From IMG/VR virus record IMGVR_UViG_3300011242_000001, positions 1 through 50,438 of that record: a stretch of DNA of 50,438 nt. One strand, written 5' to 3'. Within the stretch, counting starts at the first letter, position 1, and every line of letters begins with the position of its first letter. This DNA is from a virus. Its lineage: Duplodnaviria > Heunggongvirae > Uroviricota > Caudoviricetes. The notes under the pieces were generated by a model, which did not search any database, had not been told where the DNA came from, and saw only the letters and a program-made list of their open reading frames with translations. Of the stretch, positions 2,248 to 48,634 are shown piece by piece. Both the position numbers and the translations under genes were made by a program.

Positions 2248-2365
2248 TAAAAAAATATAAAGTTATATTTGAGTATACTTTGCTAAGTGGAAGCAATTTC
2301 CAAAAGATAAAAAATTAGTAATATTAAAAGAATATGATTTAAAAGAATTAGGTATTATATAAAAG

Positions 2366-2392
2366 AAAAGCCACTCATATTGAGTGGCTTTT
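2366..2392. terminator. intrinsic terminator downstream of tRNA-Asn
   Basis: AAAAGCCACTCA-TAT-TGAGTGGCTTTT. Confidence 0.8.
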
Positions 2393-2398
2393 AGAATT

Positions 2399-2474
2399 TG
2401 GCTCCCCGGGCAGGGCTCGAACCTGCGACCAAGAGATTAACAGTCTCCTGCTCTACCAACTGAGCTACCGAGGA
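2399..2474 (-). tRNA. tRNA-Asn (GUU)
   Basis: TCCTCGG-TA-GCTC..GAGC-A-GGAGA-CTGTTAA-TCTCT..GCAGG-TTCGAGC-CCTGC-CCGGGGA-G-CCA; 76 nt, encoded CCA, U1-A72. Confidence 0.97.
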
Positions 2475-2475
2475 A

Positions 2476-2728
2476 TTAATCAATCATATATTGGCTTAAT
2501 TATGGCTCGCCATAACTGAGATATCCGCAATATGATTGACTGAACAACTCAACCATTATTATTACTTGATCACACGCTAAACGCGATCACATTTCATAAT
2601 AACAGTAGAGTTATGGTATGATTTCACGTATCATACTTGTACACCCTCCGGGCGTCTCACGAATTGATTACCAAGCCATCAATCCAGGCGTTGCTAGCAC
2701 ATCTGATTTACATCAGCAGCTGAGGATT
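2476..2728 (-). ncRNA. candidate structured ncRNA co-transcribed upstream of tRNA-Asn
   Basis: ORF-free, GC-richer than flanks, at least six hairpins; TTTACA/TATAAT promoter at ~2731-2759. Confidence 0.55.
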
Positions 2729-2828
2729 TCATTATATATATTATTTATGTTAATGTAAATAAAAATATTATGTTTTCGCGCACTTTTTTATAAAAATATA
2801 ATCAACAGTCTATTTTTTAATCAATTTA

Positions 2829-2999
2829 TTAATGACTGTATGCAATATCAATATTGAAAATATAAACTAATGCTAATAAGATTAAACAACCTAATAAAGT
2901 GCCAACAGGAAAAGCAAACTCAAATGGTTTAACACCTAATAATTTTATTAAAAATATTGATAATAATGTTGATATAATTATTGCTATATATAATCCCAT
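2829..2999 (-). CDS. small membrane protein (56 aa, two hydrophobic segments); not in ORF track
   Basis: hand translation MGLYIAIIISTLLSIFLIKLLGVKPFEFAFPVGTLLGCLILLALVYIFNIDIAYSH; AAGGA RBS. Confidence 0.65.
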   Translation of the reverse strand: MGLYIAIIISTLLSIFLIKLLGVKPFEFAFPVGTLLGCLILLALVYIFNIDIAYSH

Positions 3000-3046
3000 A
3001 TAATGTCCTTTTTATATATTATTTATGCGAATCATAAAAGCTTATT

Positions 3047-3132
3047 AAAAGAAAAGGGAAATACAATTAAGTATTTCCCTTTTCATATCGCTACCTTAAA
3101 CCGGGTTTAATATAACGATACGCTGTTTACGA
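3047..3132 (-). ncRNA. candidate ~85-nt small RNA (hairpin plus terminator)
   Basis: GTTTAC...TATAAT promoter at 3138-3166, hairpin TATCGTTAT..GTAGCGATA, terminator AAAGGGAAATAC/GTATTTCCCTTT; no ORF. Confidence 0.45.
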
Positions 3133-3173
3133 ATTACATTATACATCAATTTTTATATAAGTAAACATATAAT

Positions 3174-3965
3174 TTAAGTAATTATGTTATATTTTGACAT
3201 TACACGGTTAATACGTTCATCATGTTCCAAATCAGATAATACAAAGTCAACTAAATCAATCTTAGAACGTATAACGGTTTCGCCACTACATTCTGCGATT
3301 TTTGTATATTGAACCCGCTTTAGATATGATCCAGATTTAAAGAATTTAGGTTCATCTTCCCAAATAACATTCTTTTGAGTTTTCAACATATCTTTCATTA
3401 CATCAGAATTTTTCTTTTGTAATGATGCGTGACTGAAGTGATGTTGCGCAAGCATGCTAACGCTATTTTTAATAGCATCTTTCTCACGCCATAAAATAGC
3501 ATTTGCCGCTTCTGCTTCATTTGGTACTTCAAAAATACGACAGTCAAATCGTGGTAAATTACCTTTGCCAAATTTCTCTGGAATTAAACGTTGTAGATTT
3601 ACATTGAAGTATGCTGTACAAGATGCAGCCAATGAAGATACTAACTTTTGAATTTTTGCATTAAAAGTAGTTGGGGAGTCATAGTCATTTACAAGAATCA
3701 ATGAAATTTCATCCGACTGTGTATAACCTATAGTCGCATTATATTCGTCAACCAGGTATGCAGTCGTTTCTTGCATTAAACGACTTAAACGTACATCATA
3801 TGGGCGAGTCAAGCCTTTTGTGAATTTACTAAAACTACGTCCATCCAACCGCACATATAAAATACTATTTGGACGAAAACGCTTCTCTGTTTCAATTCGT
3901 TCATATGCTTTTAGTCTGTCACCCATTGCATCCATACGCTGACTTCTTACTGTTTGCTTTTTCAT
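3174..3965 (-). CDS. thg1: tRNA-His guanylyltransferase (Thg1-like protein, 3'-5' polymerase)
   Basis: RLKAYE, VRLDGRSFSKF, GYTQSDEISL, FDCR, WREKDA motifs. Confidence 0.92.
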   Translation of the reverse strand: MKKQTVRSQRMDAMGDRLKAYERIETEKRFRPNSILYVRLDGRSFSKFTKGLTRPYDVRLSRLMQETTAYLVDEYNATIGYTQSDEISLILVNDYDSPTTFNAKIQKLVSSLAASCTAYFNVNLQRLIPEKFGKGNLPRFDCRIFEVPNEAEAANAILWREKDAIKNSVSMLAQHHFSHASLQKKNSDVMKDMLKTQKNVIWEDEPKFFKSGSYLKRVQYTKIAECSGETVIRSKIDLVDFVLSDLEHDERINRVMSKYNIIT

Positions 3966-4204
3966 TTTAAATCACCATTTGTAAATCCGATTGCACATCC
4001 ATCTAATGTTACCAAATAAGTATCCCAGCCAATACGATCATCCTGTGCATACCATTTAACATCCAATATAGAATTTATATCCATATATGGAATTACTTTA
4101 TAAAGATGCCGTTTTAATTCAGCTCGCGAATTAACTTCAATAACTGTTTTCATCGAGTCTTCTAATAAAGATCGGTTCTCCCGAAATAATACCATATTAA
4201 CCAC
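3962..4204 (-). CDS. conserved hypothetical phage protein
   Basis: 80-aa ORF; DDRIGWDTYLVT..G.AIGFT C-terminal motif; translationally coupled to neighbours. Confidence 0.65.
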   Translation of the reverse strand: MVNMVLFRENRSLLEDSMKTVIEVNSRAELKRHLYKVIPYMDINSILDVKWYAQDDRIGWDTYLVTLDGCAIGFTNGDLK

Positions 4205-4619
4205 CTAAAATTTTAATAAGTTCTTCTTTCACTTCTTTTGGATCATACCCTTTGTTTGCTTTAAGGAATTTACCCATAAGTGCATTAAGTGCTTTTTCGT
4301 TACCCGATTTATATTGATCAACTAATATTGCATTATCTTCAAAGATAGGTGCAAACATTACACTAAAATCTTCTTTCTGTTCTAATTGAGCAAGATCGCG
4401 ATCTAAAATAATAAAGTCTACTATAAATGCTGTATTCATTGCATTTTTAATAAATTCATTATAATATTCAATATCGAATTCTTCTGGTATTTCATTACCA
4501 GCTAAAAATAAATCACGCCCAGAAGCAGCTTTAACTAATTGAATCATTGCCGCAGCTTCTTCAAATCGTTCAAAACGGATAGGGCATTTCTTTTCGTCAC
4601 TTCGCAATTCAAACATCAT
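4197..4619 (-). CDS. protein with GatB/YqeY-like C-terminal tail domain
   Basis: C-terminus VDQYKSGNEKALNALMGKFLKANKGYDPKEVKEELIKIL resembles the GatB tail; start moved to ATG 4619 downstream of a promoter at ~4654-4680. Confidence 0.7.
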   Translation of the reverse strand: MMFELRSDEKKCPIRFERFEEAAAMIQLVKAASGRDLFLAGNEIPEEFDIEYYNEFIKNAMNTAFIVDFIILDRDLAQLEQKEDFSVMFAPIFEDNAILVDQYKSGNEKALNALMGKFLKANKGYDPKEVKEELIKILGG

Positions 4620-4713
4620 ACTAAACTCTTTTGCATGTGCGTTTATAATAATAAATATAACGCCATATGTACATATATTTTTTAATAAAAAAAGGACCAT
4701 TAAGGTCCTAATT

Positions 4714-5499
4714 TTAAACAAGTTCAAACTTGCTTTGTAAATCATTAAATGTTACAGCTAGACGTTTATCTTGTGCGACAATATTTTGTTCATTATATAT
4801 TTTTCGCATTATAAGTAGCGCATCGCCATTTATATTAGTAATTGGTGAGTCAAGTTTGGTCAAATATTTACCAAATTGACTATATTCGCATGTATAATAC
4901 TCATCACCTAATTTATATATACTATGAATAAATATAAATTTATCTTTATGTGTATCATAAAATTCAACTTGTTGACGTAATGTTTCAATATTAGAATTTA
5001 AACCACTGATGCTCAATCGTCTATTTTCTAACTCAATCATTTTGTCGGTTTTTTTATCTAGCTGATAAACTGTACCAGCTTTAGTTAAAAATGTGTATAT
5101 ATTATTGATATTATCAACTTCATATTTGATAACTTCATCCCATTGGATAAATTTTGCTTCTGTTTTAGTAAGTCGATTAAACAATACAACTGGATAATCG
5201 TCACGTAAGCGATATATTTCAACTTGCTTATATACAGTTCCGGACGGCGTCTTTCTTAATTCTTCACGAATTTCATTAACTGAATTACAAGAGCCAACAA
5301 AAATATTAGATTTTTTGTCGTCAGCAAACCATTTAATAAGATTGTCTAGCGAAATAGGATTTCCTTCAGTATCTAATACGTTGATTGATTCTAATGTACT
5401 AATAACTGATTCTTGCGTATAGCATAGCTCACTTTTGCTAAATCGTGAAATTGAACCTTCACCAATGTGTGTAAATTGTGTTTCTGTGACCAAGTACAT
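4714..5499 (-). CDS. hypothetical protein
   Basis: 261-aa ORF with AAGGA RBS, followed by GGACC terminator (4691-4709). Confidence 0.75.
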   Translation of the reverse strand: MYLVTETQFTHIGEGSISRFSKSELCYTQESVISTLESINVLDTEGNPISLDNLIKWFADDKKSNIFVGSCNSVNEIREELRKTPSGTVYKQVEIYRLRDDYPVVLFNRLTKTEAKFIQWDEVIKYEVDNINNIYTFLTKAGTVYQLDKKTDKMIELENRRLSISGLNSNIETLRQQVEFYDTHKDKFIFIHSIYKLGDEYYTCEYSQFGKYLTKLDSPITNINGDALLIMRKIYNEQNIVAQDKRLAVTFNDLQSKFELV

Positions 5500-7428: not shown

Positions 7429-8877
7429 TTAAAACTTATCGTCTGATTCTTGCACAGTAATTGTATTTTTATCAGCCAATGGGTTATAAATAATAACATC
7501 TTCATCCCCATTTTTATCTACTGCAATTACATATTTTTCGCCTGATAAATTCATTTTATGACACATTTTTTGATACCAACCGGCTAAACCTGTAGTTGCT
7601 TCATTTGGATTATGATAAAAAGCATTCATCACAGGAGGCAATCCTAAGCCACACACCACACCCGAAAGCAATACGCTAATAAATGTATATCCCAGGATAA
7701 AAGAGCTATATGGAGCCAACTGTGGTACATTAATGACTGCTAATACTAGTGCTAATGAAATGCCGCCGCGAACACCTGCCCAAGAAAGAATCGTTAAACT
7801 ACCATTTAAGCTATTTTTACGAACATTTGGGAATAAATAGAATGTTAAGAAATTAGCAATAAATCGTGAACAATGCAATACTAAGAATGCAAATACACCA
7901 GATAATAACATTACAATATTAAGGTCAAGAATAAATAGTTCTAATCCAATAAGAGTGAACAAAAACGCATTAATGATACCTTCAATTGTATGCCAAAAAT
8001 GGTTTACTTCATCTGTATCTTTTTCTTTTAAGAACTCATTCCATTTATTACCAACCATTAAACCTGCAATTACACATGCAATTGGTGCTGACGCATGAGC
8101 ATATAACGCGACCAAATAAGATGCACTTGCTAATAATGCCGTAATTAAAATCATTGTTTCCATATCATGTTTGCCTTTTAATAAAGCGAGCGCAATACGA
8201 CCAAATGCATAACCAATAATAGCAGCAATAATAATTTCAAATAATAGTGTTTCTACTACCCCAATAACTGTAAAGTCTCCGCCTTTAATAATATTAAGAA
8301 TAGTCATAAATAATGAAATACACATTGCATCATTAAATAGTGATTCACCTTCTAATTTAACCATTAAATGGTTAGGCGCTTTAACAGAACTTAATACGCC
8401 TTTAATACCAATTGGATCTGTCGCTCCTAATGCAGCACCAAGTAATAGTAAAACTAGTAATGGAATTGGAGATCCAATCATATATTGATAACCATACATG
8501 ATTACACCAAACAAGAATGCGCATGTCAATAAAGATAATGTCGCTAAAATTGTAATTGGTTTCCAATGAGCTTTAAGATCAGAACTTTTAAATTTTAATG
8601 CTGATGCCGTTAATACAAAACAGATTACACCATTAATTAAAAAATCATAAAAATTAATGCCGCGTACTGTATTTTCAATTTCATTCACATTGATAGTAAA
8701 GAATTGGTTTCCAGCCAATAATCCAGCTGCCCACTGTAAAATAAATACAGAAATTGCTGCTACAATTGGGGCCCCAATCGCAGGGGGAAAACCTAATACA
8801 CGTTTGTTAATCATTGATGTTGCAACGGATAGTGCAAACACAATAACAAAGACTTCAAGATATAAAAAGCTACCCAT
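7429..8877 (-). CDS. Na+/H+ antiporter, CPA1 (NhaP-like) family
   Basis: multiple TM segments; GAALGATDP, LEGESLFNDA, WAGVRGGISLALVL motifs; GGAG RBS before ATG 8877. Confidence 0.9.
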   Translation of the reverse strand: MGSFLYLEVFVIVFALSVATSMINKRVLGFPPAIGAPIVAAISVFILQWAAGLLAGNQFFTINVNEIENTVRGINFYDFLINGVICFVLTASALKFKSSDLKAHWKPITILATLSLLTCAFLFGVIMYGYQYMIGSPIPLLVLLLLGAALGATDPIGIKGVLSSVKAPNHLMVKLEGESLFNDAMCISLFMTILNIIKGGDFTVIGVVETLLFEIIIAAIIGYAFGRIALALLKGKHDMETMILITALLASASYLVALYAHASAPIACVIAGLMVGNKWNEFLKEKDTDEVNHFWHTIEGIINAFLFTLIGLELFILDLNIVMLLSGVFAFLVLHCSRFIANFLTFYLFPNVRKNSLNGSLTILSWAGVRGGISLALVLAVINVPQLAPYSSFILGYTFISVLLSGVVCGLGLPPVMNAFYHNPNEATTGLAGWYQKMCHKMNLSGEKYVIAVDKNGDEDVIIYNPLADKNTITVQESDDKF

Positions 8878-8988
8878 CAAAAATACTCCATAATTTATAA
8901 ACGCAAATATAACGTATACAAATATAATTGTATATACAAAGATTTAAAAAATTTTATATAAATAAAATATATATACAGGAGAAATAAA

Positions 8989-12750: not shown

Positions 12751-12789
12751 ACTGTATTTCCTTAATAATCAACATTATCTGATAGAATC

Positions 12790-12823
12790 ATTATAGCACA
12801 CCAAAATTTATTTGTATATACAT
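12790..12823 (-). promoter_or_regulatory. early promoter
   Basis: ATGTATATACA-N17-TATAAT-GATTCTAT. Confidence 0.75.
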
Positions 12824-12893
12824 TTATTAAAATTAAATAAAAAAAGATCGTGATCTTGGGGTAAAGATCACGATCTATAAAGAGAGAAATCGT

Positions 12894-12970
12894 TGGTGGG
12901 CCCAGACAGACTTGAACTGTCGACCATTCCATTATGAGTGGAGTGCTCTAACCAACTGAGCTATAGGCCC
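12894..12970 (-). tRNA. tRNA with CAU anticodon, probably tRNA-Ile2 (lysidine) rather than Met
   Basis: GGGCCTATAGCTCAGTTGGTTAGAGC-A-CTCCA-CTCATAA-TGGAA..TTCAAGT..TGGGCCC-A-CCA; C4-G69/C5-G68 pairs as in TilS substrates. Confidence 0.9.
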
Positions 12971-13122
12971 AAAATATAAATATCATTTGATACATTTTAT
13001 CTTAGATATTTATATTCCGATTAATTATGTAACACCTAAATTTGTTAAACTTAACTCACGGAGACAAATTAAGTTTAACGTTACATAATAATCTTAAGTA
13101 ACAATGTTTGTTAGCTTATGTG
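12971..13122 (-). ncRNA. structured leader (two long hairpins) upstream of the CAU tRNA
   Basis: nested inverted repeats at 13019-13093 and 12973-13016; GTTTACA...TATAAT promoter at 13127-13156. Confidence 0.5.
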
Positions 13123-13235
13123 TTCTATTATATATGTTTTATTTTATTTGTAAACATATAATAGTATAAAATTTAAACAATCAATAAATTATTTATTAAA
13201 TATATTTAAATCACTACTTATTGGAATTATCTAAC

Positions 13236-17184: not shown

Positions 17185-19094
<1,910 letters not shown>

Positions 19095-19218: not shown

Positions 19219-19716
19219 TTATTCAGTTTCATTTAATATAAAAGTTAATGTTGCAATGCCGTCTTCAACGGTGCTACGTAATACGCGCTTAACTTTTAAT
19301 TTTTGTTCTTCAATAATAGAAGTAACTTCTTCTTTAATATCTTTTGCTAATTCATTTTTATCATCGCGATAATTTGCCGGTGCTTCTTTACCATAATTAT
19401 AATGTACTACCACTACAGAATTTTTATCTTCATTAATAAATTCTATCGCCCGAATTGAAATTTTCATTTCACGACAAGCATCAACAATATAGCCTTCAAT
19501 TTTATGTTGTAGTTCTTTATCTAAAGATTCTTTAATCGCATTTGCGTCATATACTTCATTGTCAGTTTTAGTTTTTTCAACTTCTTTTTTAGCAGGTACT
19601 TCTTTATCTTTTTTCTTTTCTACGTCATTCTCTTCAGATTCTGTTTCTTTAGTTTCTACGTCTTTTTTAACCAGGTCTTCTTTTTTAATTTCATTTAAAA
19701 AGTCTGTAAATTTCAT
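19219..19716 (-). CDS. putative internal head protein with CTS-like leader MKFTDFLNE
   Basis: leader motif, then a K/E-rich low-complexity segment. Confidence 0.7.
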   Translation of the reverse strand: MKFTDFLNEIKKEDLVKKDVETKETESEENDVEKKKDKEVPAKKEVEKTKTDNEVYDANAIKESLDKELQHKIEGYIVDACREMKISIRAIEFINEDKNSVVVVHYNYGKEAPANYRDDKNELAKDIKEEVTSIIEEQKLKVKRVLRSTVEDGIATLTFILNETE

Positions 19717-23355: not shown

Positions 23356-24243
23356 ATGAGTTTCGCCAATTATTTACATGAAAATTTTGCAGAAATTACA
23401 ACTGAAGTTATTACCGAATCATATAATACAGAAGATTATTATGATTTAGAAGACTTATTTGAATCAGTTAAAACTTTTAAAGATGTACCTAATTCATTGA
23501 AAAAAGCATTGGTCAAAGCCGCTAAAAAAGCTGGTGAAAATTCTGCTGTTAAAGATTTAAAAATTCAATCTGAAGGTAAAATTACTACTAAAGGCGCTTT
23601 AACTACTGCACTTAAAAATACATTTGCTGATCATGCTGATGATCTATCTGGCTTTGTTATTGAAGCTAATGGCTTGGCTGTCGTTGCTGTAATTAAAACA
23701 AGTATGTATAAATTTAATCTTCATGTGGATGGCAGTAATGAAGCAACTCATAAAGATTTAAATGCGACTCAAGCAATTGCTGAAATTAAAACATTATTAG
23801 ATTCTTTAGAAGGTGGCTTATCCGCTGCATTTAAAGGTAAAGGTATTGAAGTTAAAGCTGTTTATTTTGATACTGTACGTGATGGCATTGCGGATGATCG
23901 TGCTGAAAATAAATACCCAGTTCGTTTGAAAAAACATGCTGGTTCTGAATTGACTACTGAAGAACGTAAAAACCTTATTACTAAATTTGCTAAAAAACAT
24001 TTAATTGCTAATGTTGAAAAATTATCTAAAGAATTACCTACCTTAGGTGATACGGATAACTTATTAAAAGCATCACTAGACCGTGAAGGTTTTGAACATA
24101 AACAAATTGAATCAATTAATAAATTGCTGCGCGATGTATCAGATGTATTAGATGCATACCGTTGGGCTATTTCTGATCAACGTATTCGTAACTTTAATGG
24201 TGAAATTAGTACATATCTTAAAAAGATGAAAAAAGATAATTAA
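23356..24243 (+). CDS. putative packaged protein, paralogue family B (leader MSFANYLHE)
   Basis: LFES.KTF.D.PN..KK, AGENS, GFVIEANGLAV shared with 28342-29331. Confidence 0.75.
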   Translation: MSFANYLHENFAEITTEVITESYNTEDYYDLEDLFESVKTFKDVPNSLKKALVKAAKKAGENSAVKDLKIQSEGKITTKGALTTALKNTFADHADDLSGFVIEANGLAVVAVIKTSMYKFNLHVDGSNEATHKDLNATQAIAEIKTLLDSLEGGLSAAFKGKGIEVKAVYFDTVRDGIADDRAENKYPVRLKKHAGSELTTEERKNLITKFAKKHLIANVEKLSKELPTLGDTDNLLKASLDREGFEHKQIESINKLLRDVSDVLDAYRWAISDQRIRNFNGEISTYLKKMKKDN

Positions 24244-25027: not shown

Positions 25028-25636
25028 TTAGATAATACTTAAAACAGTAGAATCAAGAATTGAATATACTTCTTCAACTGTGCATGAAGTATCAATTTCA
25101 ATAACATGAGAATGACGACTATTTAATTGCGAGCGGTAACGTTCTAATTTATCGTTATATGCTTCTTCAGTCATGATATCCCAATGATCATTATCGTCAC
25201 GCATGCCTTTACGCTTTTGCATTTCAGCATATGAGCAGTATGCAAAGATAATAATATTTGGATAAACAAGATGTGTTGATAAATTTAAAATCGTATTAAC
25301 AGGTGATGTATCTGATTTTAAATTATAAACAAAAGAGGTATCAACGTAACGGTCGCTAATTACGTTGATACCTGCATTTAAAGCTGGGATGATATTTTGT
25401 GCTACATAGTCCGATCGTGATGCTGATGCTAAGAAAGCAATAGTACGCCAATCTGTTGTAGATGTAATGCATTCAGGGTCCATAAAAATTTCACGGACTT
25501 TTTGGGATAGTTTTCCAGTCTTCATATCTGCTACGAACAAATATTTGTCTGAATTCAATTTAGATTGTAGATAGGGAATAATAATACTCGTTTTACCAGC
25601 TAGGTCGAGACCCTCAACTGTAATAAATTTAGCCAC
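25028..25636 (-). CDS. tmk: thymidylate (dTMP) kinase
   Basis: FITVEGLDLAGKT P-loop; VISDRY..S..Y; GTG start. Confidence 0.9.
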   Translation of the reverse strand: MAKFITVEGLDLAGKTSIIIPYLQSKLNSDKYLFVADMKTGKLSQKVREIFMDPECITSTTDWRTIAFLASASRSDYVAQNIIPALNAGINVISDRYVDTSFVYNLKSDTSPVNTILNLSTHLVYPNIIIFAYCSYAEMQKRKGMRDDNDHWDIMTEEAYNDKLERYRSQLNSRHSHVIEIDTSCTVEEVYSILDSTVLSII

Positions 25637-26122: not shown

Positions 26123-26219
26123 TATTAATTGTTCCTTATTAAGTTAACATTATATAGCATAATTTATTTTATATACATTTATATTTTATTATATTTGCAT
26201 AATAACCATTCGTCATATA

Positions 26220-26299
26220 TCGCTCTGTATCGCATTTAAATAGCCTCTATATATAGTTTATAAGGTATTGACATAAAACTCCATACAGAGCGAATGGTG
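26220..26299. repeat. dispersed inverted-repeat element (copy 1)
   Basis: TCGCTCTGTAT...ATACAGAGCGA arms; the same motif recurs at 49973-50049. Confidence 0.75.
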
Positions 26300-26374
26300 A
26301 TGATATGTATTAATATATAGATGATATAAAGATAATATTGATTACTAATTTTAATATCTTATATGAATATCTTT

Positions 26375-26423
26375 TTCTTTATTCTTTATTCTTTATTCTT
26401 TATTCTTTATTCTTTATTCTTTA
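26375..26423. repeat. heptamer tandem repeat (TTCTTTA)x7
   Basis: direct reading; lies in an ORF-free AT-rich tract. Confidence 0.95.
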
Positions 26424-26779
26424 TTTTGATTATCTTTCTTCTGGGTATGATTCACCCTCTATATCCGTGATTTGAGTAAATTATTTTTATATTTGAATTA
26501 AAAGAAAGAAAAAAATTGAAAAAAATAATAAAAGAAATAATATTAATAATTGAATACTAATTCTGTTTATCTATTTCAATTCATCTTTATAAATTATTTG
26601 ATTGCTTATCACTTTTACACATATATCAATATTAGTTGTTTGTTCCTTTAGGAACATTAATTTCATTTATGAAATTATAATAAAGAAAGAATTTATATAT
26701 TACATACATAATTTATATCTGATAATTCAAATATAAAATAAAATACTTTGTTCACTCTAATTCTACATGAATGAACAAT

Positions 26780-27283
26780 TTAAATCTCGGTGGTTCCAAC
26801 AATTTCCGTATTACTGTGTAGATCAGTTTGCTATAGATTTAGCGCTCGCCTTTCGGCACTATCTTTGCCATAGATAGTATATCCTCTAAGAACTTATTAC
26901 GGCTTCTTAGACATCAAATAATATAGCTAGTTCAAAGTGGTCAATCAAATACCAAATTTATCAGTCTATATAAGTTATATTCTATGACGAATATATTGAG
27001 ATTACGGTTGGTGTGGCGGAAAAATAGAATTCCTGTGCAATCATGAATTTTACTTTTCTGTACTTACCTTTATAAAGAATTATACTATTCAATTAAAGTA
27101 AGCCTTCATCTCAAGATGGTTGATTACCGGACCATGATATGGAATCACGTCGTCTGTTGACAGGGCAGTCAGTGCAGACACTGAATTTATTTTGATTGCT
27201 ATAGTGTTATCAACTATAATCCTTTATCCTATTATTCAACGCCCAGATAAAGTAAAGGCTTAATAGTTTTCACTATTAGAATT
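26780..27283 (-). ncRNA. candidate ~500-nt structured RNA, possibly origin-associated
   Basis: ORF-free; many hairpins including two GAAA tetraloops on the minus strand; TTTACA/TATAAT promoter-like motif at 27287-27317 (spacing atypical). Confidence 0.55.
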
Positions 27284-27358
27284 CGTATTATATATTACAT
27301 TTTATCATATTTGTAAATTTTATTTAATAAATATTTTAAAAGAACTAGGATAAAATTA

Positions 27359-28315
27359 ATGAAATTTACAGATTATTTGGTTGAAAATAGATCAGTTGAA
27401 TTATATGAATCGACTACATATAATAGCTTGTTGGAAGCAGTACAGAATATTGCGAAGATGCCGCCGACATGGGTAGTTGGTTTTACAAAGGGTGAACCTG
27501 GTAAAGGAGAATTTTCAAAAACAATAGTGAATGAAACTGTTACTATTAATAATAAAGTTGCTTTTGATCGAGTAATTAAAGATTCTCTTAAAGACAATAA
27601 AGTACACGGCTTTTTGATTTGTCATAAAGAAGTACCATTATTTGCATTGGTAAAAGACAAAAAAGATAATTCATCATCTACTTTATTTGTAATTGGGCCG
27701 ACTCAAGCTCGACAGATTAAACAATCAACTTGGACAATATATACGGCACATGACGCTAAATTTTATGAAGTACATAACACATTTGATGAAAAAGAAATTA
27801 CTAATACAAATTCAATAGTGGCGCTTGGAAAATTATTAACTACATTTGTATCTAATTATGTCAAAGGATCAAATGATGATATGCAATTAAATGACGCTTT
27901 GCGTGAATTATCTATTAATATTAAAACAGTAGTTGTGGAAACTGATAATCAAAGCGATCGATCTGGTGGATCTGGTACAGGTCGAAATTCAGATGATCGA
28001 TCAGTTCATGCTAATAAAGCAATCAAAAAATTTAGTGACGACTATTTAAGTAAATTTATTGCAGACTATCATAAGCTCGTAGATAAAGAAGTTCCAAATT
28101 TAGATAAAGCCGAAGAATTGATTCAAAAATCTATTGATGGAACACTTCAACAAATTAATATTAATAAAGTCACTGCTGAATTAAAAGAATATAATAAATT
28201 GATTAGCAAATTCAGTCATGAATATAAAACTAAAAAAGCAACTAATCCAACGGATCCAAACTGGGAAGAGGAGTTTGTAAAAGACTTTATTGACTCATTA
28301 ACAGCTACAGCATAA
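27359..28315 (+). CDS. putative packaged protein, family B (leader MKFTDYLVE)
   Basis: LLEAVQNIAKMPPTW, GFLICHK, AIKKF, VPNLDK align with family B. Confidence 0.72.
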   Translation: MKFTDYLVENRSVELYESTTYNSLLEAVQNIAKMPPTWVVGFTKGEPGKGEFSKTIVNETVTINNKVAFDRVIKDSLKDNKVHGFLICHKEVPLFALVKDKKDNSSSTLFVIGPTQARQIKQSTWTIYTAHDAKFYEVHNTFDEKEITNTNSIVALGKLLTTFVSNYVKGSNDDMQLNDALRELSINIKTVVVETDNQSDRSGGSGTGRNSDDRSVHANKAIKKFSDDYLSKFIADYHKLVDKEVPNLDKAEELIQKSIDGTLQQININKVTAELKEYNKLISKFSHEYKTKKATNPTDPNWEEEFVKDFIDSLTATA

Positions 28316-28341: not shown

Positions 28342-29331
28342 TTAATCTTGTTCTTTATGTTTTTTGATCGCTTTTGTAAGATATTTCATATCCCAATCAA
28401 GTTCTGTTTTCCAATCAGACTTAATTTTACCATTTTTATATGCTTGCTTAAACGCATATAAAATGCTATTCAATGAATCAACTTTTTCTTTAAGGCCTTT
28501 TACATCGATATTAACATCTTCACCTTCAGCAGCTTTCATTAGGATATCTTCTAATTCATCAATTTTTGGTAATGAATTTTTAATATCAGTTACAAGTTCT
28601 TCAATATTATTTTTTGTGAATTTTTTAATTACAGCACGACGGTTAGTAACAAGAGAATCTTTAAGACCAAAATTTCGTTCATTACGATCATTACTACGTT
28701 CAACATTTTTTTCAATACGTTTACGATCGCGTTTAACTACTTTAACAGTAATATCTAAAGTTGAAATTACATCATCAATTGTCATCGTTTTTACAAATTT
28801 TGATTCATCTTCAATATTTGAATTGGTTTTGTCAATTGCCAATTCAGTAAGTGTTTGTGTAATTTGATCAAATGTTTCTTGTACTTTAAGATCACCAGAA
28901 TGCCATTTTCTCAAACCACCAGAACGATGAAGTGTTCCACGATCCCATTGTGTACGTAGAATTTTTTTCAAGTTACCGTCATTTGATAGTAGATTGAATT
29001 TTTTTTCATAGTTATTGATTAAAGCCAATACAGCCAAACCATCAACTTCAATAATGATACCAGCATTATCAGTAGTATCTTTTAAACTTTCTTTGAATAA
29101 CTTATTATATGCAGTTTTATTTTTAAGAATACCAGTTGACTTAATTTCAATTTCTGAATTTTCGCCAGCAATTTTATCCCAACGAGCAAATACTTTTTTC
29201 CAAGCATTTGGAAGATCGGCAAAAGATTTAATCGATTCTTCTAAAAATTCAACTTCTGCTACTTGTGTAGTTGAATCAAATAATTCATCCAAATTCATAG
29301 TCGCTTCGTTAAGATGATCTAAAAAGCTCAT
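28342..29331 (-). CDS. putative packaged protein, family B (leader MSFLDHLNE)
   Basis: LEESIKSFADLPNAWKK, AGENS, GIIIEVDGLAV. Confidence 0.75.
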   Translation of the reverse strand: MSFLDHLNEATMNLDELFDSTTQVAEVEFLEESIKSFADLPNAWKKVFARWDKIAGENSEIEIKSTGILKNKTAYNKLFKESLKDTTDNAGIIIEVDGLAVLALINNYEKKFNLLSNDGNLKKILRTQWDRGTLHRSGGLRKWHSGDLKVQETFDQITQTLTELAIDKTNSNIEDESKFVKTMTIDDVISTLDITVKVVKRDRKRIEKNVERSNDRNERNFGLKDSLVTNRRAVIKKFTKNNIEELVTDIKNSLPKIDELEDILMKAAEGEDVNIDVKGLKEKVDSLNSILYAFKQAYKNGKIKSDWKTELDWDMKYLTKAIKKHKEQD

Positions 29332-32518: not shown

Positions 32519-33343
32519 ATGATTCTTGTAGACATGAGCAACCTTGCTATTTCAGCTTTACAATCAGCTTTAGCAGGTAGCAAAGAACAAACTAAATTAA
32601 CTCCAACAAGTGTACGTCATATTATTTTAAAAAAATTAATTGAAGTTCATAAAAAAATTGGGCGCCACCATCAATTAGTTTTATGTTTCGATTCTCGCAA
32701 CTACTGGAGAAAAGATATTTTACCTTGCTATAAAGGTAACCGAAAGCGTGTTGATGATCAATTTTCATGGGAAGAGTTTTATGCCCATTACAATACATTA
32801 AAATTAGAATTACCTATGTATTTCAGTTATAAATGTATTGAAATTGATCGTGTAGAAGCTGATGATATTATTTTCTGTATTTCAGAATATGAACGAGGAC
32901 GTGATATTATTATCGCATCATCTGATACAGACGATTTACAAATTCTTGAAAAATATCCTGAAGCGGCTCAATTCTCTATTAAGCATAATAAATTTATTAC
33001 GTGCGAAGATTATAATTATACTTTATTAGAACATATTATCGAAGGCGATAAAGCCGATGCTATTGCTAATATTCTTTCTGATGAAGATACGCATGTTAAT
33101 CCTGAGAAGCGCAGTAAAGCTCTTACTAAACAAAAACGCGCAGCATTGAAATTTATTATTCCTGCGGAAAATAAAGCACGGTTTGAACAAAATAAAAAAA
33201 TTATTGATATGTCACAAATCCCTGATAACTATCGTCAAGAAATTATTGATGCTTATCTAGCACCATTGCCAAAACGTGTTGGAAATTCATTTGAATATTG
33301 CATTAAGTATAAACTAGGACAGTTATTAAAAATTATTAACTAA
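32519..33343 (+). CDS. rnh: T4-type RNase H / 5'-3' exonuclease (FEN family)
   Basis: MILVD.SN, YWRK....YKGNRK, EADD, SSDTD..Q, GD.AD.I.N. Confidence 0.9.
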   Translation: MILVDMSNLAISALQSALAGSKEQTKLTPTSVRHIILKKLIEVHKKIGRHHQLVLCFDSRNYWRKDILPCYKGNRKRVDDQFSWEEFYAHYNTLKLELPMYFSYKCIEIDRVEADDIIFCISEYERGRDIIIASSDTDDLQILEKYPEAAQFSIKHNKFITCEDYNYTLLEHIIEGDKADAIANILSDEDTHVNPEKRSKALTKQKRAALKFIIPAENKARFEQNKKIIDMSQIPDNYRQEIIDAYLAPLPKRVGNSFEYCIKYKLGQLLKIIN

Positions 33344-48169: not shown

Positions 48170-48634
48170 ATGAAAGAAATTAATATCTATTGCGATGGTG
48201 CATGTAAAGGTAATGGCAAAGTAGATGCCATTGGTGGTTGGGGATCACATTCATTTGATATTGATATGTCAATTTATGGCGGTGAAATAGGTACTACTAA
48301 TAATAGAATGGAATTACTTGCAGCCATTCGTACATTACAATGGATTTTAAAGAATCGATCTATTGATAAAAAAAATCCTAGCGCTAATAATGAATTATAT
48401 AAAATCCATACAGATTCTAATTATGTAAAAGAAGGCATTACTAAGTGGATTATCAAATGGAAAATGAAAAATTATATGGGTGTAAAAAACCCCGATTTAT
48501 GGCAACTTTTAGATAAGTTAAATACTCATATGTCTAAATCAGTCCAATGGCATTGGGTACGTGGGCATGATGTATCAGAGGGTAATATTGAAGCGGATAG
48601 ATTAGCTAATTTAGGTTGTGAAAGTATTAAATAA
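48170..48634 (+). CDS. rnhA: ribonuclease HI (bacterial RnhA type)
   Basis: IYCDGAC.GN, GGWG, TTNNRMEL.A, TDS.YV, KN.DLW, WVRGH, GN..AD.LA. Confidence 0.95.
   Translation: MKEINIYCDGACKGNGKVDAIGGWGSHSFDIDMSIYGGEIGTTNNRMELLAAIRTLQWILKNRSIDKKNPSANNELYKIHTDSNYVKEGITKWIIKWKMKNYMGVKNPDLWQLLDKLNTHMSKSVQWHWVRGHDVSEGNIEADRLANLGCESIK

Follow-up and report, generated by a model that had tools for sequence, protein, structure and literature searches.

Seven evenly spaced copies of a predicted large structured RNA in a 381-kb jumbo phage genome as candidate RNA-primed replication origins

Known structured RNAs and origins, and the locus under study

Large ornate RNAs of phages have solved structures but lack an assigned function, and the replication origins of jumbo phages are largely undefined. 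RNA II of ColE1 undergoes a folding switch. T4 has at least five origins, of R-loop type or other, three of which lie near transcription switches (PMC3016281), and its oriF and oriG are described as a promoter with an unwinding element that forms an R-loop (PMC3016281; PMC4412123). The element analyzed here shares with oriF and oriG the T4-like phage background, the presence of several sites, the order of a predicted promoter followed by AT-rich DNA and the availability of gp59, UvsW and RNase H (as presented in PMC3016281; PMC4412123), whereas T4 origins have no local sequence motif in common and are not described as having a folded RNA family; in the present family, every site is homologous to the others and the AT-rich portion is enclosed in the predicted RNA. 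Like ColE1 RNA II, as outlined in PMC4412123, it is a predicted folded RNA of several hundred nt with its own promoter motif, a possible alternative pairing and RNase HI at hand, but it differs in the lack of a conserved G-run and of a conserved antisense promoter, in its multiple chromosomal copies and in its far greater number of pseudoknots. The resemblance to ROOL and GOLLD RNAs, in the description given in PMC12286853, extends to being phage-borne, 500-900 nt long and free-standing, with several pseudoknots and a variable linker between conserved parts; unlike these RNAs, it occurs as seven dispersed paralogs in one genome, away from tRNA clusters. The motifs of PMC10690425, as far as that source details them, measure at most 151 nt. 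Seven homologous, evenly spaced copies in one genome make both the function of ornate RNAs and the nature of jumbo phage origins testable.

The window analyzed here comprises the first 50,438 nt of a record of 380,997 nt with terminal repeats, 30% GC and 16 tRNA calls. T4-like core genes are carried by this record of an uncultured 381-kb jumbo phage, for which no close named phage was found (best capsid match 55%). Beyond named phages, roughly 40 capsid-protein clusters reach at least 67% identity. Since the phage GroEL is 73% identical to contigs labelled Acinetobacter, the host may be Acinetobacter-like. Replication genes encoded by the phage include RNase HI, T4-type RNase H, gp59, a DnaB-like helicase, a Toprim protein and UvsW. 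The RNase HI reported in an earlier note on this DNA was recovered as a true RNase HI (48170-48634, PF00075), and the T4-type RNase H, a 5′-3′ exonuclease (32519-33343), lies in the window as well. The domains of the family B DNA polymerase are split across two genes about 10 kb apart (61528-62790 and 73273-75207). The window also encodes a tRNA-His guanylyltransferase, a GatB/Yqey-domain protein, a Na+/H+ exchanger and GroEL/GroES (3174-3965, 4197-4745, 7429-8880 and 17185-19094).

Positions 26123-27358 are free of any ORF of at least 60 aa. The earlier note had called them the only long ORF-free region; they form the longest such gap within the window, but not the only one, as 2248-3173 (926 nt, with tRNA-Asn) and 12751-13213 are also ORF-free, and 13 gaps of at least 400 nt exist genome-wide. 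Between a TTTACA-type promoter motif and tRNA-Asn, the minus strand of 2475-2760 contains about 280 nt of GC-richer, ORF-free and hairpin-rich sequence, which has no Rfam match at the gathering threshold and may be another structured RNA. The features of the locus are as follows:

25028-25636, minus strand: thymidylate kinase gene; in a relative, the copy on contig L065 lies about 2 kb upstream of the ortholog in the same orientation
26149-26177, minus strand: early-type promoter motif for the 161-aa gene downstream, distinct from that of the element; recognized at the sequence level
26370-26425, no strand assigned: (TTCTTTA)n slippage repeat beyond the end of the conserved unit, with 7 units in the window copy and 3 in that of the sister strain
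26443-26463, minus strand: 3′ strand of helix Z (26463-26458) and 3′ hairpin (26457-26443), where the purine-rich tail begins and the conserved unit is predicted to end on its 3′ side
26465-26790, minus strand: helix W (26790-26783 with 26472-26465), identified by covariation, and the variable AT-rich domain enclosed by it, predicted to fold on itself
26792-26837, minus strand: 5′ strand of helix Z (26837-26832) and hairpin presenting the Y partner (26807-26792), from the covariation scan
26848-26913, minus strand: covarying hairpins P8 (26913-26883; loop in PKc) and P9 (26878-26858; loop in PKb), then a GNRA hairpin
26999-27018, minus strand: central spine strand of 20 nt, nearly invariant, predicted to pair with four distant segments (PKa, Y, PKb, PKd)
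27037-27199, minus strand: 5′ multibranch domain, closed by P3 (27199-27195 with 27041-27037) and containing P4/P4a
27220-27254, minus strand: hairpin P2 with covarying stem; its loop (27243-27240) is predicted to form PKa with 27018-27015
27261-27278, minus strand: 5′ leader hairpin with GAAA loop; sequence varies between copies and is poorly aligned
27289-27317, minus strand: predicted promoter TTTACA-17 nt-TATATA(AT), resembling the early promoter class of the phage; overlaps a T4-late-like box in other copies
27359-28315, plus strand: divergent 318-aa gene with an MxFxxYLxE N-terminus beside the element gap

Predicted fold and extent of the RNA

The proposal of an undescribed large structured phage RNA in this gap is strongly supported by covariation and purifying selection: as judged from the sequence alignments, the element encodes a real large structured RNA family without a catalogued match, from which a transcript is predicted. 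It has the general traits of large ornate ncRNAs, namely a length above 350 nt, numerous pseudoknots and covarying helices, and the absence of a conserved ORF; in the window copy, no conserved small ORF was seen. Instead of the roughly 500 nt assumed earlier, the predicted RNA measures about 850 nt (27290-26440, minus strand), because two covarying helices, W and Z, span the AT-rich tract. Depending on the copy, the length is about 530-850 nt, with about 530 nt in the shortest copy, that of L022. Folding of 26740-27290 was more stable than that of shuffled sequences on the minus strand (z −3.3), but also on the plus strand (z −3.9), so that the strand cannot be assigned from energy alone. Choice of the minus strand relied on the upstream promoter motif, the GNRA loops and G-U-type changes.

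Our model contains 14 helices with 68 pairs and five pseudoknots; across ten sequences, 93.2% of 679 cells are paired and 42 of the 68 pairs show compensatory double changes, figures that lean favourable, as this alignment also served to choose the model and poor register led to the omission of P2 and several variable hairpins. None of 500 shuffles reached the values of the 14-helix model, and slid controls gave 34-42%. RNAalifold applied to the seven copies predicted 63 pairs, 37 of them with compensatory changes. In an unbiased scan of the ten-sequence alignment, 8 of 54 candidate helices had at least two double-changed pairs, compared with 0 of 46 in the parallel-orientation control. The helices named in the earlier note are all literally present in the sequence. 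By our reading of the alignment, however, AAGCCUU and AAGGCUU can pair with each other in no more than two of the ten copies, and for CAUC-UUGA-GAUG the AGAU strand shows covariation with another partner.

The core of the predicted RNA contains invariant nucleotides and is organized around the central spine strand. In PKa, 39 of 40 cells are paired, with a change from G-C to A-U in two copies, and three of the four pairs of PKd are double-changed. Helix Y is invariant, so its pairing is unproven by covariation. The 5′ multibranch domain holds strand X (27149-27143) and the 5′ strands of PKc (27129-27126) and PKd (27111-27108); PKc, the fifth pseudoknot, joins 27129-27126 to the P8 loop. P8 is 100% paired with double changes in 8 of 9 pairs, and 6 of 7 pairs are double-changed in P9. 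Strand X has two covarying partners, one local and one distal, and the 151-kb copy changes both in step. Mainly on account of this copy, strand X may be a folding switch. X had been considered the main partner of the distal strand, but was replaced in this position by helix W after the unbiased scan, leaving the pairing of X with the distal strand as a possible alternative. The conserved small hairpin loop UGAUAAC/UGAAAU at 27212-27206 and the P2 loop resemble T-loop motifs, and in the model these loops could mediate tertiary or tRNA-elbow contacts.

The earlier note had correctly recognized an AT-rich tract but placed it after the RNA. In the covariation model it lies inside the RNA, closed by W and Z, which connect the core with a motif lying 320 nt farther downstream. 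For helix Z, which ranked third in the unbiased scan, 5 of 6 pairs are double-changed (26837-26832 with 26463-26458). The domain enclosed by W measures 95-320 nt across copies with 77-86% AT and folds better than shuffled sequences in 10 of 10 cases (z −1.5 to −6.5). W formed in every single-sequence fold of fragments that had been cut to end at W, and W is likewise present when all 854 nt are folded together (z −4.4). By these sequence-based criteria, the AT-rich tract is a folded variable RNA domain and not bare unwinding DNA. The 3′ hairpin (26457-26443) is weakly supported and marks the point where conservation of the window copy stops. The 50 nt after W contain 56-76% purine in all ten elements. 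Beyond the conserved unit, the (TTCTTTA)7 array is present as described (TRF, 26370-26425), but it is absent from the other nine of the ten elements, and the sister strain has three units. An iteron origin similar to T4 oriE was rejected, as the heptamers are a copy-specific slippage repeat in 1 of 10 elements and not a conserved direct-repeat array.

The promoter-like motif noticed upstream of the paired sequence corresponds to TTTACA-17-TATATA at 27317-27289. An early-like −35/−10 pair was found in 7 of 10 elements and a late-type TATAAATA box in 6 of 10, and both promoter classes are used elsewhere in the genome, which contains 74 TWTACA-17-TAYWAT sites, 61 of them intergenic. The next gene has its own promoter motif in four elements, and terminator-like hairpins lie just upstream of three of the seven copies. 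Three of four RNA runs contained short near-identical pieces at a depth of 3-6, two of which cross the predicted promoter, so that DNA carry-over is possible, and the fourth run yielded none; we do not count these pieces as evidence of transcription.

Copies, relatives and sequence conservation

According to self-BLAST and profile searches, which returned nothing further below E 1, the genome contains seven copies at approximately 26.9 (−), 58.3 (−), 87.3 (+), 151.1 (−), 190.7 (−), 265.1 (−) and 343.5 kb (+). Core identity between copies is 63-77%, and they split into the groups 26/58/87/190 and 151/265/343. All copies are intergenic; the genes flanking them or downstream of them are unrelated between copies, and one downstream gene is convergent. 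Three further distinct versions were obtained from related contigs. On L031, a metagenome contig, the neighbours of the element on both sides are orthologous to the genes that border the 151-kb copy, yet the 5′ half of this element (L031:2319-2973) is closer to the 343-kb copy (78 vs 72%), which suggests recombination or replacement between paralogs. L022 and L065 are two contigs, together 140 kb, of a relative with a 79% identical capsid protein. Like the window copy, with which it groups, the L065 copy is located close to thymidylate kinase, whereas the L022 copy branches on the side of group 151/265/343, so that both copy types likely predate the split from the relative. At the site matching the 190-kb copy, the relative has no copy.

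A sister strain (94-99% identity) has the same copies at 5 of 7 sites reached. Between the two strains, 16 of 3019 sites differ in the elements, compared with 100 of 2871 in other intergenic DNA and 535 of 10495 third codon positions; the elements are thus about 7-fold more conserved than other intergenic DNA (P 2e-17) in a contrast that represents one strain pair and five covered copies, one of them over 84 nt only. The AT-rich domain showed 1 substitution in 303 nt, plus indels. Judged by this sequence comparison, every covered copy is under purifying selection. Neither near-identical recent copies nor decayed copies were found within the family.

BLAST against named phages and plasmids gave nothing or short, weak matches (none longer than 66 nt, best E 1e-3). 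Pattern scans identified 1 real locus among 39 in metagenomes, none among 120 loci in genome contigs (23 of 64 parts covered) and, in the last viral scan, already-known copies only (119 loci from 18 of 64 parts); L009 and L069 were discarded as chance matches. Covariance models searched against sets of seven and five named jumbo or T4-like phages yielded three weak matches (RaK2, GAP32 and XacN1; E 0.03-0.4), of which the one in RaK2 falls inside a tail gene and the one in GAP32 is separate from the repeated elements of that phage.

The element matches no Rfam family: tRNAs were the only hits at the gathering threshold, and matches at relaxed E-values were at chance level. A 138-nt tRNA-like Rfam call at genome positions 357253-357390 (L236:3253-3390), which ARAGORN did not list, is possibly a tRNA with an insertion. 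A literature search, largely of openly accessible papers, retrieved no account of this family, nor of any structured RNA that occurs in several evenly spaced copies in a jumbo phage. We regard the seven-copy family as a previously uncatalogued, selected, large structured RNA with a probable cis role in replication initiation.

Spacing, skew and competing explanations

That each copy acts in cis as an RNA-primed replication origin is our favoured explanation, to which we assign a probability of roughly 0.45. The suggestion of an RNA-primed origin thereby stays in the lead, but mostly not for the reasons first given, as the heptamer repeat does not represent iterons, the AT-rich tract belongs to the predicted folded RNA and ColE1 hallmarks are missing. 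The support comes instead from the even spacing of the seven copies and from a GC skew that is independent of gene orientation. Gaps between copies are 29-78 kb (CV 0.35), with P 0.007-0.009 for evenness under three nulls; excluding distances below 5, 10 or 20 kb, on the assumption that recombination removes such close copies, changes P to 0.015, 0.025 and 0.10, respectively. At fourfold sites, GC skew is higher in genes directed away from the nearest copy than in those directed toward it (+0.066; rotation P 0.003). When structural or codon-biased genes were excluded, P was 0.0025-0.007. The sign is the same at 6 of 7 copies, whereas without the window's own copy P becomes 0.10. AT skew around the copies gave no signal. 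The two copies of the relative show the same skew sign, one of them not significantly and one resting on 22-74 sites. Genes pointing away from copies account for 60% of the coding length (P 0.04), and enrichment of copies at divergent sites was not significant (P 0.07-0.16); the statistics on spacing, skew and orientation were all chosen after seeing the data. The strand switch at the window copy is real, but among 195 intergenic sites this one ranks no higher than the top 10-13%.

An independent system offers a partial parallel. GAP32, a Rak2-like jumbo phage of Cronobacter, has five dispersed, diverged intergenic RNA-like elements with covarying helices and a conserved G-run at 35.3, 99.0, 177.8, 261.6 and 341.0 kb. 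Their spacing is more regular than that of the seven-copy family (CV 0.16, P 0.001), but the skew test was negative (−0.05, P 0.86), and no sequence-profile match to our family was found in either direction. Thus, the even spacing is repeated in GAP32 while the skew is not. As a cultured phage with an analogous array, GAP32 can serve to address the question of cis versus trans action. Distinct from these elements, GAP32 also contains a repeat in three copies, located near 3.8, 6.6 and 22.9 kb.

Several details fit known RNA-primed origins poorly. G-runs of at least 4 occur in 7 of 10 elements but not in the window copy, so the conserved G-run of ColE1, through which the primer RNA pairs with a C-stretch in the template, has no counterpart there. 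The late-type TATAAATA box in 6 of 10 elements likewise counts against an origin. One consensus match at +27192-27220 could represent a promoter for an antisense RNA I, but 16 such sites were found versus 15 expected by chance, and by eye it is not conserved when the copies are aligned. Being rich in U, poor in G and able to fold on itself, the linker would make a poor R-loop or unwinding element; as in T4-type origins, a promoter motif lies upstream of an AT-rich tract, but this tract folds within the predicted RNA. To our knowledge, five pseudoknots exceed what primer RNAs are described to need.

If the copies are origins, host-type RNA polymerase would fire the promoter of each copy early, and the RNA would fold during its synthesis, with strand X perhaps switching from its local to its distal partner as in ColE1-type folding switches. 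The purine-rich 3′ tail, rather than the U-rich linker, would stay hybridized to the template. The displaced DNA strand, identical in sequence to the 3′ segment of the RNA, could be gripped by W, Z or X once these strands are free. Phage RNase H, the gp59-like loader, the DnaB-like helicase and primase would next set up forks, with UvsW turning the origins off late. With even spacing, no part of the 381-kb genome would be farther than about 40 kb from an origin. Extending this to other phages, we tentatively propose, as a doubtful generalization, that jumbo phages build origins from repeated, ribozyme-sized five-pseudoknot RNAs that clamp both strands of their own DNA at regular intervals, with different clades using sequence-unrelated RNAs. 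If true, this would provide the first function for one class of orphan ornate RNAs.

The best surviving alternative, close behind in our estimate although less likely than not, is an abundant trans-acting ornate RNA like ROOL or GOLLD that serves as scaffold, cage or decoy, with diverged copies maintained for dosage or for escape from host nucleases. The element is a free-standing unit with its own promoter motif and separate promoter motifs for the downstream genes, and the terminator-like hairpins upstream of three copies fit this organization. The compact pseudoknotted core with a variable internal domain recalls the linker inside the cage of ROOL and GOLLD, as depicted in PMC12286853, and abundant ORF-less transcripts of similar size are reported for ICP1, phage K and PA5oct in the available descriptions (PMC7567579; PMC9241854; PMC7318152). 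Genes with an MxFxxFLxE motif flank 4 of 7 copies (P 0.017). Against a trans-acting RNA stand the absence of matches to the models of ROOL (RF03087, none at E<=10 among 12 candidates, with control genomes that held no positive) and GOLLD (RF02032, none at E<=10 among 48 candidates) and the location of the copies outside tRNA islands: tRNAs are found at 2.4, 12.9 and 370-380 kb, and the nearest copy is 13.5 kb away. Such an RNA also leaves the even spacing and the skew switch unexplained. A cis-acting origin is preferred because multiple origins explain regular spacing, for which a trans-acting RNA gives no reason. Even if the origin explanation fails, the family still constitutes a new large RNA fold, one whose paralogs supply the covariation internally, and, with its shortest copy of about 530 nt, a target for structure determination.

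MxFxxFLxE-start genes are dispersed over the genome (39 in total; in the window, for example, 1004-1405, 19219-19716, 23356-24243, 27359-28315 and 28342-29331), and TATAAATA boxes precede many of them. The MxFxxYLxE or MxFxxFLxE N-terminus resembles the targeting signal of T4 internal head proteins. One listed match is the portal gene, which may be due to chance.

A ribozyme or a domesticated non-autonomous mobile element, similar to HEARO/omega-RNA or to an intron and with the AT-rich domain as relic of a lost ORF, appears improbable. HEARO RNA has a loop-strand pseudoknot near its 3′ part, and our element resembles it as a dispersed structured RNA with a pseudoknot of this kind. Invariant core nucleotides, the two partners of strand X, the different copy positions in the relative and the mixed affinity of the L031 element would all agree with this origin. 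Nevertheless, the HEARO/IscB omega-RNA model (RF02033) was unmatched and no nuclease gene lies beside any copy. Group I and group II introns gave no Rfam match at E<=10 or E<=5. TnpB, IscB, transposases and RNA-guided nucleases were absent among 258 of about 500 ORFs in a Pfam scan that covered, outside the window, ORFs of 165-1000 aa except one of 907 aa. The lack of recent or decayed copies and the purifying selection on covered copies also speak against mobility. A role as template linked to a reverse transcriptase was rejected, as no such enzyme was found in the genome.

Least probable is another cis role, such as genome anchoring, organization, packaging or a structure of single-stranded DNA, for which even spacing suggests a position-dependent function and the strand-neutral folding energy would allow DNA, whereas one-sided G-U-type changes, GNRA loops on one strand and the upstream promoter motif point to RNA, and no evidence names anchoring or packaging specifically. 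A leader or riboswitch was rejected in view of downstream genes that are unrelated, have their own promoters and in one case are convergent. The 265-kb copy (264713-265408) lies between the genes for RNA ligase 1 and polynucleotide kinase, with one small gene intervening.
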